NCBI GenBank assembly: GCA_965247955.1
Contig: OZ252042.1
Location: 1,968,323-2,032,322 of the forward strand
DNA length: 64,000 nucleotides
From: Vicinamibacterales bacterium
Lineage (GTDB): Bacteria; Acidobacteriota; Vicinamibacteria; Vicinamibacterales; UBA8438
Direction of reading: 5' to 3'
The position numbers and the translations under genes were made by a program. Each line of letters begins with the position of its first letter. Position 1 is the first letter of the stretch. The notes under the pieces are model-generated. The model was given only the letters and a program-made list of their open reading frames with translations. It was not told the origin of the DNA and did not search any database. Shown here one piece after another: positions 36,167 through 40,098 of this stretch.

Positions 36167-37105
36167 ATGCCAGAACGCTTTACCGGCACGGATCGCCCGT
36201 CGTGGGTGACGGACTGGCGGACGCTGCACCGGGTGGCGGACCGGCAGGCCCCGACCGTGGAGCAGGCGTTTGTGGCGCTGGTGGCGGCGGCGCGCGGCGG
36301 GCGGACGCGACGACGGATTCAGCGGGCGCTCCAGCGTGGGAACCGCCGACGGGCGTTGACGATCGCGGTGGAGGCGTGGCAGTCGGCGAGTGAGACGTGG
36401 CGGGCCTCGCTGGTGACCGCGCTCAGGGACACGGTGCTGGCGGCCGCGACGGCGGTGGGGACCCGGATGAGCCAGGACCCCCGGATCGCGTTTCGGATCG
36501 CGTTTTCCGTGACGAACCCCGCCGCGACGCGCTGGGCGGAGACACAAGCCGGCCGGCTGATTCGCCAGATCACGGCGGACCAGCGGCAGTCAATCCGGCG
36601 CGTGATCGTGCAGGCCTTCTCGGAAGACCTGACCACGCGCCAGGTGGCGATCCGCCTGACGGATCAGATCGGGTTGCAGTCGCGGCAGGCTGCCGCCCTA
36701 GAGCGGTTCCGGGCGGACCTGGTTGAGAAGGGGCTGCGCACGGACCGCGTGTCGGTCCTGACGCGCCGCGCCCGTGATCGCATGGTCCGGCGCCGCGCGC
36801 GGTCGATTGCGCGCACGGAGGTCCTGCGGGCATCGAATATGGGCCAGCAACTGTTCTGGGAAGCGGCCGTGGACGCGGGCGAATGGCGAGCTCAGGACGT
36901 GCGGCGGGTCTTCATCGTGACGCCGGACGATCGCTTGTGTCCGATCTGCGCGCCGCTCGACGGGATGATGGTCGGTCTTGATGACGAGTTTGTGTCCCCG
37001 ACGAACGGAGCCTCGGCGGTCGTGCCGCCGATCCATCCGCAATGTCGGTGCGCCCTCGGGATCGTGGAAGCAGAACGGCTGGTGCAGCCGCCGGTGGCGG
37101 CCTGA
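36167..37105 (+). CDS. head morphogenesis protein (Mu F / SPP1 gp7 family)
   Basis: IARTEVLRASNMGQQ ... DDRLCPICAPLDGMMV ... PPIHPQCRCAL. Confidence 0.8.
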   Translation: MPERFTGTDRPSWVTDWRTLHRVADRQAPTVEQAFVALVAAARGGRTRRRIQRALQRGNRRRALTIAVEAWQSASETWRASLVTALRDTVLAAATAVGTRMSQDPRIAFRIAFSVTNPAATRWAETQAGRLIRQITADQRQSIRRVIVQAFSEDLTTRQVAIRLTDQIGLQSRQAAALERFRADLVEKGLRTDRVSVLTRRARDRMVRRRARSIARTEVLRASNMGQQLFWEAAVDAGEWRAQDVRRVFIVTPDDRLCPICAPLDGMMVGLDDEFVSPTNGASAVVPPIHPQCRCALGIVEAERLVQPPVAA

Positions 37106-37127
37106 TCTGACAGACGGAGGAGGACGA

Positions 37128-37940
37128 ATGGCGCTCAAAGCGGTGCTGACGAGCCAGGACGAGTTCAACGCGTTGCCGGAGGCGATGCGCGAACACTACA
37201 CGGAACAGGACGGCACGTGGGGGCTCGCCCTGGACGGACCGACGCGCCAAGAAGCGGCGCTCGGGGCGAAGGTGAACGAGTTCCGAGACACGAATATTGT
37301 GTTGTCGCGCGAACGTGACGAGGCGACACGCGCGGCGGAGGAGACGAAGCAGCAGCTCGCGGCGGTGGATCTCGAGGAGTTCGAGCGCTTGAAGAAGGCG
37401 CACGCGACCTTGGACAAGAAGGGCGTGACGAAGCCTGAGGACATTGACCATCTTGTGCAGCAGGCGGTCGCGTCGGCGGTGAAGCCGATGCAGGACCAGT
37501 TGCAGGCGGCCGCCGAGCGGGAGCAGGCGGCGCACGCGCGCCTCGCGCAGGAATCGTTCACGCGGCTGGTGACGGAGCAGGCGTCTCGAGCGGGGGTCCG
37601 GCCCGAGGCCCTGCCGGACGTGATTGGCCGGGCCGGACAGCACGGGTTTGTGATGCAGGAGGGCCAGGCGGTCGTGCTCGGGGAGCACGGCGTCCCGAAG
37701 GCCAGCACGGAGCACCCCGGCGAGTCGTTCTCGCTGGGCGAGTGGCTCGTGGGGCTCAAGCGCGACGGGGGTGCGCATTTGTTTAAGCCGTCGGTCGGAT
37801 CGGGGGACCAGGGCCAGCCTGGGACGCCGGGTCCGGGGCCGCGGGAGGTACTGCGCGATCCGTCGCCCGTCGAGTTTGGGAAAAACTTGGAGGAGATTGC
37901 GAAGGGCAAGGTCGCCGTCGACCGGACCGCGACAGGGTAG
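37128..37940 (+). CDS. scaffolding protein (putative)
   Basis: 271 aa from ATG 37128. Ala/Glu/Gln-rich helical sequence located between the MuF-like and capsid genes. Confidence 0.55.
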   Translation: MALKAVLTSQDEFNALPEAMREHYTEQDGTWGLALDGPTRQEAALGAKVNEFRDTNIVLSRERDEATRAAEETKQQLAAVDLEEFERLKKAHATLDKKGVTKPEDIDHLVQQAVASAVKPMQDQLQAAAEREQAAHARLAQESFTRLVTEQASRAGVRPEALPDVIGRAGQHGFVMQEGQAVVLGEHGVPKASTEHPGESFSLGEWLVGLKRDGGAHLFKPSVGSGDQGQPGTPGPGPREVLRDPSPVEFGKNLEEIAKGKVAVDRTATG

Positions 37941-38137
37941 CGGGTCGGGTGACGGGCGAAGGAGGGCATCCGCGGGGCGGATGCTCCGGGTACAAGACCG
38001 CGACGGGGTCGCGGGTCGGACGACGGGCCAGGCAGGGAACCTGCGGGGCAGGTTCCCCGGGTTATACCCCGCGACGGGGTCGCGGGTCGGTCGTGCAGCT
38101 CGTGGAGAAGCGTGGAAACCGCGGTGCGGATTCCCGG
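37925..38137 (+). repeat. three tandem 71-nt units, each with two GC-rich hairpins
   Basis: 25-nt heads at 37925, 37996 and 38067 (GACCGCGACGGGGTCGCGGGTCGG). The second hairpins differ in sequence but keep their pairing. See finding. Confidence 0.7.
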
Positions 38138-38188
38138 TCCCCGGGGGGGATACGAAGACAGGACTGGTAATCACACGAAGGAGGCATT

Positions 38189-39307
38189 GTGGCCAATACG
38201 TGGACCGAAGTTGTTCCGAAGTTGCTGGCGCAGGGCTTGATGGCGCTGCGCGAGCAGATCGTCCTGCCGCAGCTGGTCAACCGCGCGTACGAAGCGCTGG
38301 CCGGGCAGCGTGGCTCGACCATCGACGTGCCGATCCCGTCGGCGATCACCGCCACGGAGGTCATCCCGTCCAACACGCCGCCGCCGAACGTCGACAGCGC
38401 CCCGACGAGCGTCCCGATTCCACTGAACCAGTGGTATGAGGCGACGTTCCATCTGACCGACAAGGAAGAGCTGGAGGTCATGCAGGGGGTGATCCCCATG
38501 CAGGCGTCCGAGGCGGTCAAGGCGATCGCGAACACGGTGGAAACGCATCTCTTCGGGTTCTACACGGGCGTGTATGGGTTCGTGGGCACGCCGGGGACAC
38601 CGCCGTTCGCCTCGGACCTGACGGCGTTCACGAACGCGCGGAAGACGCTGCACGAACAGTTGGCGCCGTTTGATCCGCGGTACTGCGTCATCGACCCGGA
38701 CGCCGAAGCGAACGCGCTGAACCTCCGGGCGTTTCAGGATGCCTCGTATCGCGGCGACGCGGCAGGGATCGTAGCGGGCCAGATCGGCCAGAAGCTCGGC
38801 TCGCTGTGGGTGATGAGCCAGCACGTGCCGACGCACACGGCCGGAACCGGCACGAACCACGTCGTCAACAAGGCCGAGGGGTATGCGCCCGGAGCCACGA
38901 CGATCGAGGTGGATGGCGGGACCGGCACGATCCTGGTCGGCGACATCGTGACGTTCGCGGGGCACGACCAGCCGTATGTGGTGACGGCGGCGCTGGCGAG
39001 CGACCAGTTCCGCATCGCGCCGGGGCTGAAGGCGGCGGTCGCGGACGATGCGGCCGTGACGCTCAAGGCGACCCACGTCGTCAATCTCGTGTTCCACCGG
39101 GACGCCATCGCGTTTGCCACGCGGCCATTGGAGGGGACGGTGCGGCCAGGGCTGGGCAGTGTCGTGGAAACGGCTGTCGACCCGACGTCGGGGCTGACGT
39201 TGCGGCTCGAGGTCACGCGGCAGCACAAGCTGACTCGCTACGCGTTCGACATCTTGTGGGGCGCGGCGCTCGTGCGGCCGGAGCTGGCCGTGCGGCTGGC
39301 GGGCTAG
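38189..39307 (+). CDS. major capsid protein
   Basis: 372 aa with a GTG start after GAAGGAGG. Position after the scaffold gene. Sequence has a P22-coat/HK97-fold-like character. Confidence 0.75.
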   Translation: MANTWTEVVPKLLAQGLMALREQIVLPQLVNRAYEALAGQRGSTIDVPIPSAITATEVIPSNTPPPNVDSAPTSVPIPLNQWYEATFHLTDKEELEVMQGVIPMQASEAVKAIANTVETHLFGFYTGVYGFVGTPGTPPFASDLTAFTNARKTLHEQLAPFDPRYCVIDPDAEANALNLRAFQDASYRGDAAGIVAGQIGQKLGSLWVMSQHVPTHTAGTGTNHVVNKAEGYAPGATTIEVDGGTGTILVGDIVTFAGHDQPYVVTAALASDQFRIAPGLKAAVADDAAVTLKATHVVNLVFHRDAIAFATRPLEGTVRPGLGSVVETAVDPTSGLTLRLEVTRQHKLTRYAFDILWGAALVRPELAVRLAG

Positions 39308-39343
39308 CGGGCGCGTCGGAGAAAACCAGCAAGGAGGACGGGC

Positions 39344-39559
39344 ATGCGACAGTTGCCGACGGTACGGATTGCGGATGGGTCCGGCGGGGTGAGGGTGATC
39401 AACGAAACCGACTTCGATCCGGCCGTGCACCAACGGGTGGACGATCCGCCGGGCATGCTCGCCCCTGAACCCGCCGGGCCCGAGCCTCGGCGGGCGGCGG
39501 AGGGGGTGGCTGGAACACCCCCACGCCGCCGACGGCGGCGGGCGAGGAGCACGGGCTAA
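39344..39559 (+). CDS. hypothetical small head-region protein
   Basis: 71-aa ORF with an SD-like AAGGAGG upstream. Arg-rich tail. Confidence 0.3.
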   Translation: MRQLPTVRIADGSGGVRVINETDFDPAVHQRVDDPPGMLAPEPAGPEPRRAAEGVAGTPPRRRRRRARSTG

Positions 39560-40098
39560 TGGCCGTCAGTGATCTCGTGGCGACGCCGGGGGCGTCGGAC
39601 GCCAATACCTACTGCACGGTCGCGGCCGCGGACCAGTACCACGAGAACCATCCGCAGGGTGAGGTGGCGTGGACGGCGTCCGAGGCGGAGCAGAAGCGGC
39701 GCGCGTTGCTGCAGGCCACCCGTCTGCTCGACGCCCATGTGGTCTGGACGGGGTACGCCGCGAGCACCGGGCAAGCCTTGTCCTGGCCCCGGGACGGCAT
39801 GTACGACCGGAACGACTATGGGCTGGACGCGGGGGTCATCCCGCCCGCCCTGCGAGACGCCACGGCCGAGTTCGCGCGACACCTGTTGGATGCGGCCAGC
39901 GACCGCACCGCGGACTCTTCGGTGGTGTCGAGTGGGATCCGCGAGCTCGTGGCGGGACCGGTGGAGCTGACGTTCACGGGCGATCGCCCGGACGTCATCC
40001 CGGATGCGGTGTGGTTTCTGCTCGTGCCGAGTTGGATGGCGCGGGTCCGTCAGCGGTCGAAGCGGACGGCGGCGGTGGTGCCGGTGGTGCGGACATGA
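39559..40098 (+). CDS. head-tail adaptor (gp6/DnaT-like family)
   Basis: SDANTYCTVAAADQYH...AWTASEAEQKRRALLQATRLLD...LSWPR pattern and position. Confidence 0.55.
   Translation: MAVSDLVATPGASDANTYCTVAAADQYHENHPQGEVAWTASEAEQKRRALLQATRLLDAHVVWTGYAASTGQALSWPRDGMYDRNDYGLDAGVIPPALRDATAEFARHLLDAASDRTADSSVVSSGIRELVAGPVELTFTGDRPDVIPDAVWFLLVPSWMARVRQRSKRTAAVVPVVRT

Follow-up and report, generated by a model that had tools for sequence, protein, structure and literature searches.

The window analysed in this study is the whole DNA stretch of 64,000 nt, and the work concerns the 248-nt spacer that separates the scaffold gene from the P22-type coat gene of a Vicinamibacterales prophage. The following features were located in this region.

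37087..37101, + strand: scaffold-leader hairpin GCCGCC-GGT-GGCGGC (-10.4 kcal/mol), within the final codons of the MuF-like gene
37128..37940, + strand: head scaffolding protein gene (phrog_206 head scaffolding protein, E 4.8e-23)
37925..37995, + strand: repeat unit 1, with the degenerate head A1' (37927-37943) and hairpin B1
37964-37986, + strand: hairpin B1, GGGCATCCGC-GGG-GCGGATGCTC (-16.3 kcal/mol)
37996..38066, + strand: repeat unit 2 (the extra unit), with head hairpin A2 and hairpin B2
37998-38014, + strand: head hairpin A2 (-10.7 kcal/mol)
38035-38057, + strand: hairpin B2, GGGAACCTGC-GGG-GCAGGTTCCC (-17.6 kcal/mol)
38067..38090, + strand: third head, which holds hairpin A3
38068-38086, + strand: hairpin A3, CCCGCGAC-GGG-GTCGCGGG (-14.0 kcal/mol)
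38114..38134, + strand: hairpin C, GGAAACCGC-GGT-GCGGATTCC, with an A.A mismatch; its 5' arm and loop are complementary to the coat start region
38137..38151, + strand: proximal hairpin D, GTCCCC-GGG-GGGGAT, with the loop 46 nt before the coat start
38177..38191, + strand: coat translation initiation region, with the Shine-Dalgarno sequence GAAGGAGG at 38177-38184 and the GTG start codon at 38189-38191
38189..39307, + strand: major capsid (coat) protein gene of the P22-coat type (PF11651, E 8.5e-23; phrog_283 major head protein, E 4.2e-81)

The start of the scaffold gene was revised to the ATG at 37128, with GGAGGAGG just before it. The start at 36978, which belongs to the longest ORF, was discarded as an artefact, because the tblastn matches of the relatives begin at residue 51 of this long ORF. 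The loop of the scaffold-leader hairpin is located 35 nt 5' of the revised ATG, and the orthologous hairpin in G084 has compensatory arms (GTGCAGCC/GGCTGCGT). The N-terminus of the coat protein, MANTW, is kept in all relatives.

The 71-nt repeat and its hairpins

Tandem Repeats Finder reported a repeat with a period of 71, 2.3 copies and 80% matches at 37925-38090. The sequence-only reading had described this region as three tandem 71-nt units of paired GC-rich hairpins. The three heads were recovered as claimed: the 22-nt head CCGCGACGGGGTCGCGGGTCGG occurs at 37927, 37998 and 38069 (spacings 71 + 71), three copies within the window as compared with 0.01 expected by chance. Two real units, identical at 54/71 positions, follow from them, but the third consists of the head only and agrees with unit 2 at 36/71 positions. 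Unit 1 is partly coding, because the scaffold stop codon TAG (37938-37940) sits inside it. The 24-mer that was said to open every unit is present in unit 2 only. Unit 1 opens with GACCGCGACAGGGTAGCGGGTCGG, which has two mismatches to the 24-mer and forms a weak hairpin (-5.0 kcal/mol), and unit 3 opens with CCCCGCG. The linkers GACGGGC and CCGGGT, thought to be common to all units, are indeed found in units 1 and 2, but not in unit 3.

The GC-rich hairpins fold as earlier described, and B1, A2, B2 and A3 were each computed to be stable. The second hairpins of the units had been regarded as fully paired throughout; this applies to B1 and B2, which differ from each other by three double (compensatory) changes and one single change, but not to the third, hairpin C, with its A.A mismatch. 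Hairpin D, which belongs to the family-typical YCC-GGN-GGR type, and the hairpin 5' of the scaffold start are additional to those listed in that reading. The spacer contains five C-GGN-G hairpins with stems of at least 6 bp, as compared with a mean of 0.059 and a maximum of 2 in 2000 dinucleotide shuffles.

An Rfam scan of positions 36500-39500 of the window (E<=10) gave chance-level matches only. No terminator-like sites were found in 37925-38188, so that an intrinsic (Rho-independent) terminator is not indicated there, and the promoter scan of the window placed no promoter within the element. The ORF at 37949-38170 had no Pfam match. A protein-coding repeat or small ORF was rejected: the period of 71 shifts the frame with each unit, and the length differences among close relatives are not multiples of 3.

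Conservation of the C-GGN-G hairpin in related phages and confinement of the head motif to prophage sites

A set of 57 non-redundant scaffold-to-coat spacers was collected from soil, marine and Vibrio phages whose coat homologues share 46-85% identity. The comparison with homologous phages, suggested earlier as a check, showed the same C-GGN-G loop on unrelated, covarying stems at the same place in most of them: C-GGN-G hairpins are present in 44 spacers and missing from 13. They account for 82 of the 182 triloop hairpins in the 57 spacers, and no other strong recurrent loop class was seen in the leaders. Arms of at least 5 bp accompany 82/146 CGGNG pentamers in the spacers versus 61/1000 in the neighbouring coding sequence (odds ratio 19.7, p 9e-46). 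At the third loop position U or G prevails, with A the least frequent base (6/82). Among coat homologues of 42% identity or less, the motif is missing or the loop differs (C-GGAU-G). P22 itself was set aside as a model, since its genes 8 and 5 abut without a spacer and the element is therefore missing there.

The loop is usually found 30-90 nt before the coat start, with a sharp peak. The bin from -100 to -1 contains 78 hairpins over 87 loci (about 9/kb), whereas bins outside both leader regions contain 0-0.7/kb nearly everywhere and at most 1.04/kb. Measured from the scaffold stop, the hairpins lie anywhere between 21 and 199 nt away. Because this distance is variable and the distance to the coat start is peaked, the coat start, not the scaffold stop, serves as the anchor of the element. 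A second peak of hairpins lies 5' of the scaffold start, and a copy before the scaffold gene was found in the window and in 14 of the 45 relatives' loci examined. The hairpin is the common building block of the leaders of coat genes, and of some scaffold genes, throughout a large phage family whose coat is of the P22 type and whose scaffold is of the phrog_206 type. The sequence-only reading had proposed an element that sets the scaffold:coat ratio; from the anchoring to the coat start together with the copy before the scaffold gene, a mark of the two high-copy genes fits better.

Twenty relatives' loci gave no Rfam match at the gathering threshold. The motif was not found described in the literature, where a 2023 survey gives only unnamed candidates upstream of a T7-type capsid gene. 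Terminator-like sites were detected in 11/47 relatives' spacers, and most of them are not CGGNG hairpins. The consensus promoter search of the same 47 spacers returned three promoter-like sites, so that an arrangement of promoter plus leader is not general.

The earlier proposal that structure rather than sequence is selected holds well beyond the window, with the loop fixed and the stems covarying in homologues. When 11 marine relatives were aligned by MAFFT without guidance and folded by RNAalifold, two hairpins were recovered. Double changes occurred in 10 of 13 pairs, and 95% of the cells were paired versus 81% in shuffles, none of 500 of which reached 95%. Compensatory changes also distinguish B1 from its orthologue in G084. 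In the spacer hairpins, G.U pairs far exceed A.C (42 vs 6), which indicates that the coding-sense strand folds, and 82 hairpins were counted on the sense strand versus 56 on the antisense strand. A conserved position relative to the gene start, covarying stems and strand-specific pairing were all found, as in the class of cis-regulatory leader RNAs; the effect on downstream gene expression that also marks this class is predicted here.

A dispersed REP-type repeat had been named as the finding that would speak against such an element. In the 2.49-Mb host genome, the head motif occurs five times, all at two homologous prophage sites, the second being the same position in a sibling prophage; a REP/BIME-type host repeat is thereby ruled out. 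Among 401 genomes of the order, exact copies of the head were found in G000 and G011 only, and one-mismatch copies in the other genomes of the order were absent except for the G011 prophage. Single two-mismatch matches were about as frequent as those to a reversed-pattern control. CGGNG hairpins in the host genome at large occur at 0.06/kb per strand and form 2% of the triloop hairpins. Eleven exact copies of the 17-mer of hairpin A were found in viral contigs; all of them stand in unrelated surroundings that lack a neighbouring coat or scaffold homologue, and they are uninformative.

Copy number and origin of the expansion

The 71-nt repeat is a lineage-specific expansion that gives five to six hairpins in place of the usual one to three. 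Unit 2 is missing in the sibling prophage, in G084 and in related phages from three other samples, the DNA runs from other samples being informative for copy-number variants only. The spacer of the sibling prophage is 171 nt long versus 248 nt in the window. Close relatives differ by unit-sized blocks, including one whole 71-nt unit, and the G011 prophage has a different arrangement. Recombination at the 22-24-nt head hairpin, either unequal or between phages, probably gave rise to the expansion.

The added unit might be a recent neutral product of duplication or recombination, with only the ancestral hairpins conserved. We regard this as possible but doubtful. The absence of the middle unit from the sibling prophage, G084 and the phages of the three other samples agrees with it, as does the arrangement in G011. 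On the other hand, unit 2 retains both hairpins perfectly paired through the three compensatory changes relative to unit 1, and because these changes keep the pairing, the structure of unit 2 should be under selection now or have been so recently. Moreover, neutrality would cover the expansion only and not the element.

Possible role of the leader hairpins

Leader/start-region duplexes were stronger than those with shuffled start regions (mean z -2.0, 56 loci), and own start regions gave -19.1 kcal/mol versus -16.1 kcal/mol for foreign ones, with 14/56 loci in the top tenth; these duplex scores are inflated by GC-rich arms and by arms like the Shine-Dalgarno and anti-Shine-Dalgarno sequences. 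The best partner of the start region fell inside CGGNG hairpins in 58% versus 23% expected, and it contained the pentamer at 25/36 loci versus 13.5 expected. In the consensus fold of four close relatives, hairpin C was paired with the start region. In the window, the complementarity between its own start region and the leader was not significant (z -0.46), and hairpins A and B showed no complementarity to the start region. Since hairpins A and B lack it, competition alone cannot account for the conserved loop. An alternative helix between hairpin 1 and the start codon in the marine subgroup (89% paired, two double changes, matched by 56/500 shuffles) was rejected because its covariation was not significant.

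An mRNA-level role in coat expression, as proposed earlier, is plausible, for processing or stability and for protein binding alike. Our leading interpretation, to which we would give about an even chance, is that of a cis-acting leader RNA module that tunes the translation or the mRNA fate of coat, and also of scaffold. The stretch would be the untranslated leader of the coat message, possibly within late mRNA read through from the scaffold gene; it is made of short hairpins with free stems and the fixed C-GGN-G loop. When the local hairpins are formed, the Shine-Dalgarno sequence and the start codon would stay free; when they are unformed, some of their parts could pair with the start region and close the start site. 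Two parts would do the closing: the 5' arm together with the GGN loop, and, in the proximal hairpin, the YCC arm that resembles an anti-Shine-Dalgarno sequence. A putative reader, whether a protein or some component of the translation or transcription apparatus, would favour one of the two states, or would protect or process the RNA. Action at the RNA level, the switch at the start region and the reader are all points that we infer, the last because the loop is invariant. The element moves with the head module across host phyla, and the reader should therefore belong either to host machinery that is universal or to the head module itself (for instance scaffold or coat protein). A small Cys4 ORF (47-49 aa) between scaffold and coat was rejected as the general reader, as it is confined to five marine relatives; neither the window nor the host genome nor any of the other loci has it, and no family was assigned to it.

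The hairpins might, as a rather unlikely special case, be operators for free scaffold or coat protein that couple the translation of coat and scaffold to capsid assembly. If so, dsDNA phages would have their own equivalent of the coat-protein operators known from RNA phages, scaffold autoregulation of the P22 kind would gain a molecular site, and the hairpin copy number would be an evolvable gain control. Scaffold autoregulation in P22 is said to be long known, from Wyckoff and Casjens in 1985.

The problem that such a leader module would address is the production, in tailed phages, of hundreds of coat and scaffold copies versus a dozen portals from one late operon, which is mostly ascribed vaguely to ribosome-binding sites. 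A simple RNA signal about 50 nt before the start would mark the coat gene and often the scaffold gene too. The C-GGN-G motif spans phages of soil Acidobacteria, marine bacteria and cultivable Vibrio phages, is absent from Rfam, and offers a low-cost way to recognise coat genes when phage contigs from metagenomes are annotated. Its function is testable in cultivable members such as the SSP002/MAR10 group, which includes a phage of the laboratory strain Vibrio natriegens, and the natural variation in copy number is a ready dose series.

A known system that invites comparison with the leader module is the com-mom translational operator of phage Mu, reportedly the work of Hattman and of Wulczyn and Kahmann in 1991. 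Binding at a hairpin there decides whether the start site is open. Both concern leaders of phage late genes, with a small hairpin just 5' of a start region that pairing can close. However, Mu has one site for one gene and the zinc-finger reader Com, whereas the family of the window has one to six hairpins with another loop, spread across hundreds of phages, and its reader is putative.

The genome of Vibrio phage SSP002 has a separate canonical terminator 5' of its two hairpins, with TTGACG-19 nt-TATAAT coming after the terminator. The latter is a promoter by our own reading, the tool having given no call because of the 19-nt spacer. The hairpins are hence neither this terminator nor the promoter. 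The two hairpins are the sole intergenic tandem CGGNG hairpins in this 76-kb genome. A separate small RNA, which had been suggested as a possibility, is unlikely, as no terminator follows the hairpins and the SSP002 leader runs directly into the coat gene. Metatranscriptome contigs of two marine relatives contain RNA of coat and leader, and in one of them of scaffold, with little from farther upstream; these are assembled low-depth contigs without 5' ends, whose depth is a poor measure of expression.

It seems unlikely to us that the hairpins act purely in mRNA processing or stability, as ribonuclease barriers or endonucleolytic sites with no effect on initiation and no dedicated reader. They would then let coat (and scaffold) mRNA reach levels independent of those of the low-copy genes farther 5', portal and MuF. 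The hairpins are stable and GC-rich and precede the two highest-copy head genes, and the marine contigs, which span coat and leader but not the genes farther upstream, also agree with this. Precedents are the T7 RNase III sites and the REP/BIME hairpins between malE and malF, the latter reportedly described by Newbury et al. in 1987; in both, GC-rich hairpins between operon genes give differential expression through mRNA stability or processing. REP sequences, however, are dispersed in the host and protect the upstream gene, whereas the C-GGN-G element is phage-specific and anchored to the downstream start, and the T7 sites are long irregular duplexes as opposed to short hairpins with a fixed triloop. 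A plain barrier needs no invariant C-GGN-G loop. Because the hairpins are anchored to the coat start and not to the scaffold 3' end, they are not 3' protectors of the upstream message. The ompA 5' UTR stem-loop, a stabiliser reportedly characterised by Emory, Bouvet and Belasco in 1992, resembles the element in that leader hairpins belong to a very highly expressed gene; it has to lie at the extreme 5' end and its loop is not fixed, whereas the present element has a fixed loop and mostly lies within the transcript. In SSP002, the first hairpin is an estimated 25 nt or so past the likely transcript start; without processing of the RNA, this is too internal for a stabiliser of the classical 5'-terminal kind.

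A signal at the level of transcription is quite improbable. Under this view, the long structural operon would open with hairpins of the nascent RNA, or with a non-template strand, that alter RNA polymerase or recruit an elongation factor, giving anti-termination or pause control like that of the HK022 put RNA, the LoaP leader hairpin or ops/RfaH. The ops consensus is the 12-nt GGCGGTAGnnTG on the non-template strand of an operon leader, and LoaP binds a small leader RNA hairpin. The likeness consists of a short signal with a C-GGT core in the leader of a long operon: the hairpins head a long run of structural genes, lie just past the likely promoter in SSP002 and L069, and share CGGT with ops, and the host has a second gene with a NusG domain. 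Nevertheless, CGGT is all that is common to them; the full ops consensus is missing, and no hairpin with GGCGGTAG was found in the window or the listed relatives. Stems of 5-10 bp are too long to form within the transcription bubble. The element is usually operon-internal, with a recognisable spacer promoter in only 3/47 relatives, and it is repeated before scaffold and coat, where the copy 1 kb upstream would be redundant for anti-termination. The NusG paralogue is unlinked to either prophage, and no Rfam anti-terminator family matched.

CsrB/RsmZ-type arrays consist of GGA-loop hairpins that bind CsrA, and they share with the present element the tandem short hairpins with GG in the loop. Here the loops are triloops and GGA is the rarest, unlike in those arrays. 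A CsrA sponge was therefore rejected, with GGA in 6/82 hairpins and PF02599 absent from the host genome, while control genomes give matches.

That the hairpins act as DNA, whether as an extruded N4-type hairpin promoter, as a recombination hot spot or as a selfish palindromic repeat, is very improbable: the 22-nt head clearly mediates the gain and loss of units, but the repeat is not dispersed (five host copies, all at the two homologous prophage sites), and the stems vary between phages and are thus unfit as family-wide recombination homology. The promoters of the N4 virion RNA polymerase are hairpins of the template strand with a 5-7-bp stem, a C-G[A/G]A-G loop (for instance 5'-C-GGA-G-3') and +1 about 11 nt from the loop centre, and the third loop base A is needed for a sheared G.A pair (PMC4496689). 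They resemble the leader hairpins in the free-sequence stem of 5-7 bp, the 3-nt loop starting with GG and the C-G closing pair. In N4, however, the signal is DNA of the template strand read by a giant virion polymerase, whereas here it is the sense strand of a temperate prophage of ordinary size, and an N4-type promoter is ruled out by the folding strand and by the third loop base, which is mostly U or G.

The hairpin repeat and its unit changes

The hairpin array lies in a prophage in which the head genes are arranged in the order portal (DUF4055), MuF-like head morphogenesis protein, scaffold and P22-type coat, as follows.

37128-37940: scaffold gene (phrog_206, E 4.8e-23)
37925-38137: tandem repeat
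38189-39307: P22-type coat gene (PF11651, E 8.5e-23; phrog_283, E 4.2e-81)

The true start of the scaffold gene is the ATG at 37128, which has a strong Shine-Dalgarno sequence, and not 36978; the longest open reading frame, from 36978, overlaps the MuF gene by 128 nt, and automatic annotation would be likely to extend the gene too far. A 71-aa ORF at 39344-39559, downstream of the coat gene and ahead of the head-tail adaptor gene (phrog_477), has a good Shine-Dalgarno sequence (AAGGAGG) and no PHROG match. A hairpin, CGACGCC-GGG-GGCGTCG (39581-39597), lies within the beginning of the adaptor gene.

For the repeat at 37925-38137, Tandem Repeats Finder gave a period of 71, 2.3 copies and 80% matches, and the 22-nt head CCGCGACGGGGTCGCGGGTCGG was found at 37927, 37998 and 38069 (chance expectation in the window, 0.01), which confirmed the tandem repeat noticed in the sequence-only reading. 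The three equal units described there were retained in part: the heads recur three times and units 1 and 2 are identical at 54 of 71 positions, but unit 1 has a degenerate head (GACCGCGACAGGGTAGCGGGTCGG), with the stop codon of the upstream gene inside it, and the third unit has the head alone in common with the others. Likewise, the second hairpins had been regarded as fully paired despite their differences. This is true of the first two, B1 and B2, which differ by three double changes, but the third has an A.A mismatch. An additional hairpin, GTCCCC-GGG-GGGGAT, was located at 38137-38151. In total, the 248-nt spacer contains five perfect C-GGN-G triloop hairpins with stems of at least 6 bp, as compared with a mean of 0.059 in 2000 dinucleotide-preserving shuffles.

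The window's genome is a single contig of 2.49 Mb, and its relatives are labelled as Vicinamibacterales (Acidobacteriota) MAGs. The head motif occurs five times in this genome, three times in the window's element and twice at the equivalent scaffold-to-coat site of a sibling prophage (C1:1.45 Mb); dispersal as a REP-type host repeat, raised earlier as an alternative, was not seen. Across the order (401 genomes), exact copies were confined to this genome and G011, the prophage of which is nearly identical to the window's. The leaders were composed as follows (A, head hairpin; A1', that of unit 1; B, second hairpin; C and D, hairpins after the units).

Window: A1'-B1-A-B2-A-C-D
Sibling prophage and G084 (a related genome): A1'-B1-A-C-D
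G011: A1'-A-B1-A-C-D

The leaders of these four close relatives differ by whole units, and the middle unit is also absent from related phages in three other samples. Gains and losses involve unit-sized blocks with lengths not divisible by three, and therefore, the stretch is noncoding. Unit gain and loss likely occur by recombination at the repeated head.

The sibling prophage (L006; C1:1442000-1458000), with a two-head leader, has the same portal-MuF-scaffold-coat order, and its coat and scaffold are 87% and 92% identical to those of the window. The host genome of the G011 prophage (L008/L013; OZ252219.1) is 6.1 Mb and carries the label of another genus; the scaffold 3' end of this prophage matches the window's letter for letter, and its coat is 93% identical. 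From the sequences, this match suggests that a single phage lineage has recently crossed between genera, or that genus boundaries are loose for these MAGs.

A family-wide triloop motif

With the coat protein as the sole bait, genomes, metagenomes and viral contigs yielded about 100 loci encoding coat homologues (46-93% identity). Nearly all had a long scaffold-to-coat spacer (60-290 nt). C-GGN-G accounted for 82 of 182 triloop hairpins (GGU 42, GGG 26, GGC 8 and GGA 6) in a non-redundant set of 57 spacers (8.2 kb), of which 44 had at least one. A test on CGGNG pentamers, which does not presuppose pairing, agreed with this count: complementary arms of at least 5 bp flanked 82 of 146 pentamers in spacers and 61 of 1000 in flanking coding sequence (odds ratio 19.7, p 9e-46). 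CGGNG makes up 2% of triloop hairpins in the host genome, and no other loop class of 3 to 8 nt was strongly recurrent in the leaders. Thus, the 71-nt repeat of the window is an expansion of a family-wide motif, for which no matching Rfam family and no description in the literature searched were found.

The stems show no sequence relationship across the family (for example, GCCCC/GGGGC, TCTCC/GGAGA and CAGCTAC/GTAGCTG), while the loop and the C-G pair that closes it do not change. The usual form of the proximal hairpin is YCC-GGN-GGR, in which an anti-Shine-Dalgarno-like arm is held by a Shine-Dalgarno-like arm. In four leaders (L019, L020, L021 and L072) its place and YCC/GGR arms are kept with a UGU or UGA loop in place of GGN (e.g., GAGTCC-TGT-GGACTT); these natural loop variants are possible controls.

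For covariation, 11 marine relatives were aligned with MAFFT, unguided, and the alignment was folded with RNAalifold. The consensus recovered two hairpins with double changes at 10 of 13 pairs, and 95.1% of cells were paired, as compared with 80.8% in shuffles (none of 500 was as high). Pairing fell to 43-65% when the partner was slid by 1-3 columns. Together with the fixed loop on unrelated stems, the double changes support the selection on structure proposed for the window and extend it to the family.

Position, strand and transcript context

The loops are concentrated 30-90 nt upstream of the coat start. Across 87 loci, the -100 to -1 bin held 78 hairpins (~9/kb), no C-GGN-G hairpins fell within the coat gene's first 100 nt, and outside the two leader regions almost all bins had 0-0.7/kb (maximum 1.04/kb). 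Relative to the scaffold stop, the position ranges from 21 to 199 nt, and the element is therefore tied to the coat start. A minor second peak is seen immediately upstream of the scaffold start, both in the window and in 14 of the 45 loci of relatives that were examined; there, the window's hairpin is GCCGCC-GGT-GGCGGC (37087-37101), and its G084 counterpart has compensatory arms. G.U pairs greatly outnumber A.C (42 vs 6), and the hairpin count drops from 82 on the sense strand to 56 on the antisense strand, indicating that the coding-sense strand is the one that folds.

In the cultivable Vibrio phage SSP002, the coat of which is 50% identical to the window's, the spacer contains a canonical terminator, TTGACG-19 nt-TATAAT, AGCGGC-GGG-GTCGCT, GGTTTC-GGG-GAAACC and the coat start, in this order. 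The hairpins, the only intergenic tandem CGGNG pair in the 76-kb genome, are therefore neither terminator nor promoter, but part of the coat leader. A consensus promoter was present in the spacer of just 3 of 47 relatives, and therefore, the element is usually inside a polycistronic RNA. In metatranscriptome contigs of two marine relatives, the coat and leader were covered, and the scaffold too in one, while genes farther upstream were uncovered except for two small low-depth pieces in one run. This is weakly consistent with high coat and scaffold RNA levels.

Known systems and the proposed action

In its predicted action, the element most resembles a translational operator beside a closable start site, as in Mu com-mom, or an intercistronic stability element; it differs from both in its fixed triloop, multiplicity and breadth. 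CsrA-binding arrays were ruled out (GGA is the rarest loop, and the host is without CsrA), as were intrinsic terminators (no U-run, and a separate terminator in SSP002), N4 hairpin promoters (wrong strand and third loop base), REP/BIME (repeat not dispersed) and ops (consensus absent). In P22, gene 5 follows gene 8 without a spacer. In more distant coat homologues the spacer is missing, or C-GGAU-G tetraloop hairpins, which may be a sister form of the motif, precede the scaffold or coat; examples are GGTC-GGAT-GACC and GAGCC-GGAT-GGCTC. The carriers, with coats 27-31% identical, were as follows.

L116 (HK639): 1660-1700
L152 (Klebsiella phage ST405-OXA48phi1.3): 590-640, 1414-1500
L153 (Caulobacter phage DMCA): 1400-1420

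The element is read as a cis-acting leader RNA of phage structural genes, the function of which is a well-constrained hypothesis. Because complementarity between the start region (-16 to +8) and its own leader exceeds expectation, we infer from sequence a putative start-site switch with a loop reader. The local hairpins, when formed, would leave the coat start site open, an alternative leader/start pairing would close it, and some factor reading the fixed loop would shift this balance or protect the RNA. The duplex was stronger than with shuffled start regions (mean z of -2.0, with 54% of the 56 loci below -1.64), and a locus's own start region gave -19.1 kcal/mol vs -16.1 for those of other loci (top tenth, 14 of 56; expected 5.6). 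The best partner lay inside CGGNG hairpins in 58% (expected 23%) and included the pentamer in 25 of 36 loci (expected 13.5). For the marine subgroup, a helix is possible between ACGGUGU in hairpin 1 and ACACCGU at the GUG start (89% paired, weak covariation), and in the consensus fold of the window's subgroup CCGCGGUGC of hairpin C pairs with GCAUUGUGG or GCACCGUGG at the start. The window's own complementarity was not significant (z -0.46), and its hairpins A and B showed none to the start region. No candidate reader was found in this analysis. The element travels with the head module among hosts of different phyla and phages of different lifestyle, and therefore, the reader should be universal machinery or a head-module protein.

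Five marine loci (L022, L023, L025, L026 and L027) carry a conserved 47-49-aa ORF between scaffold and coat, immediately before the leader hairpins (e.g., L025:2177-2326, L027:2758-2901). It has four cysteines and a basic tail (MPCMKC..GGCNF..C..); no family matched it above threshold, and the window lacks a homologue. Besides the housekeeping copy at 2185344, the window's genome has a second NusG-domain gene (L155; C1:1569521-1569796, 250-aa open frame), which is possibly a specialised NusG paralogue and is unlinked to either prophage.
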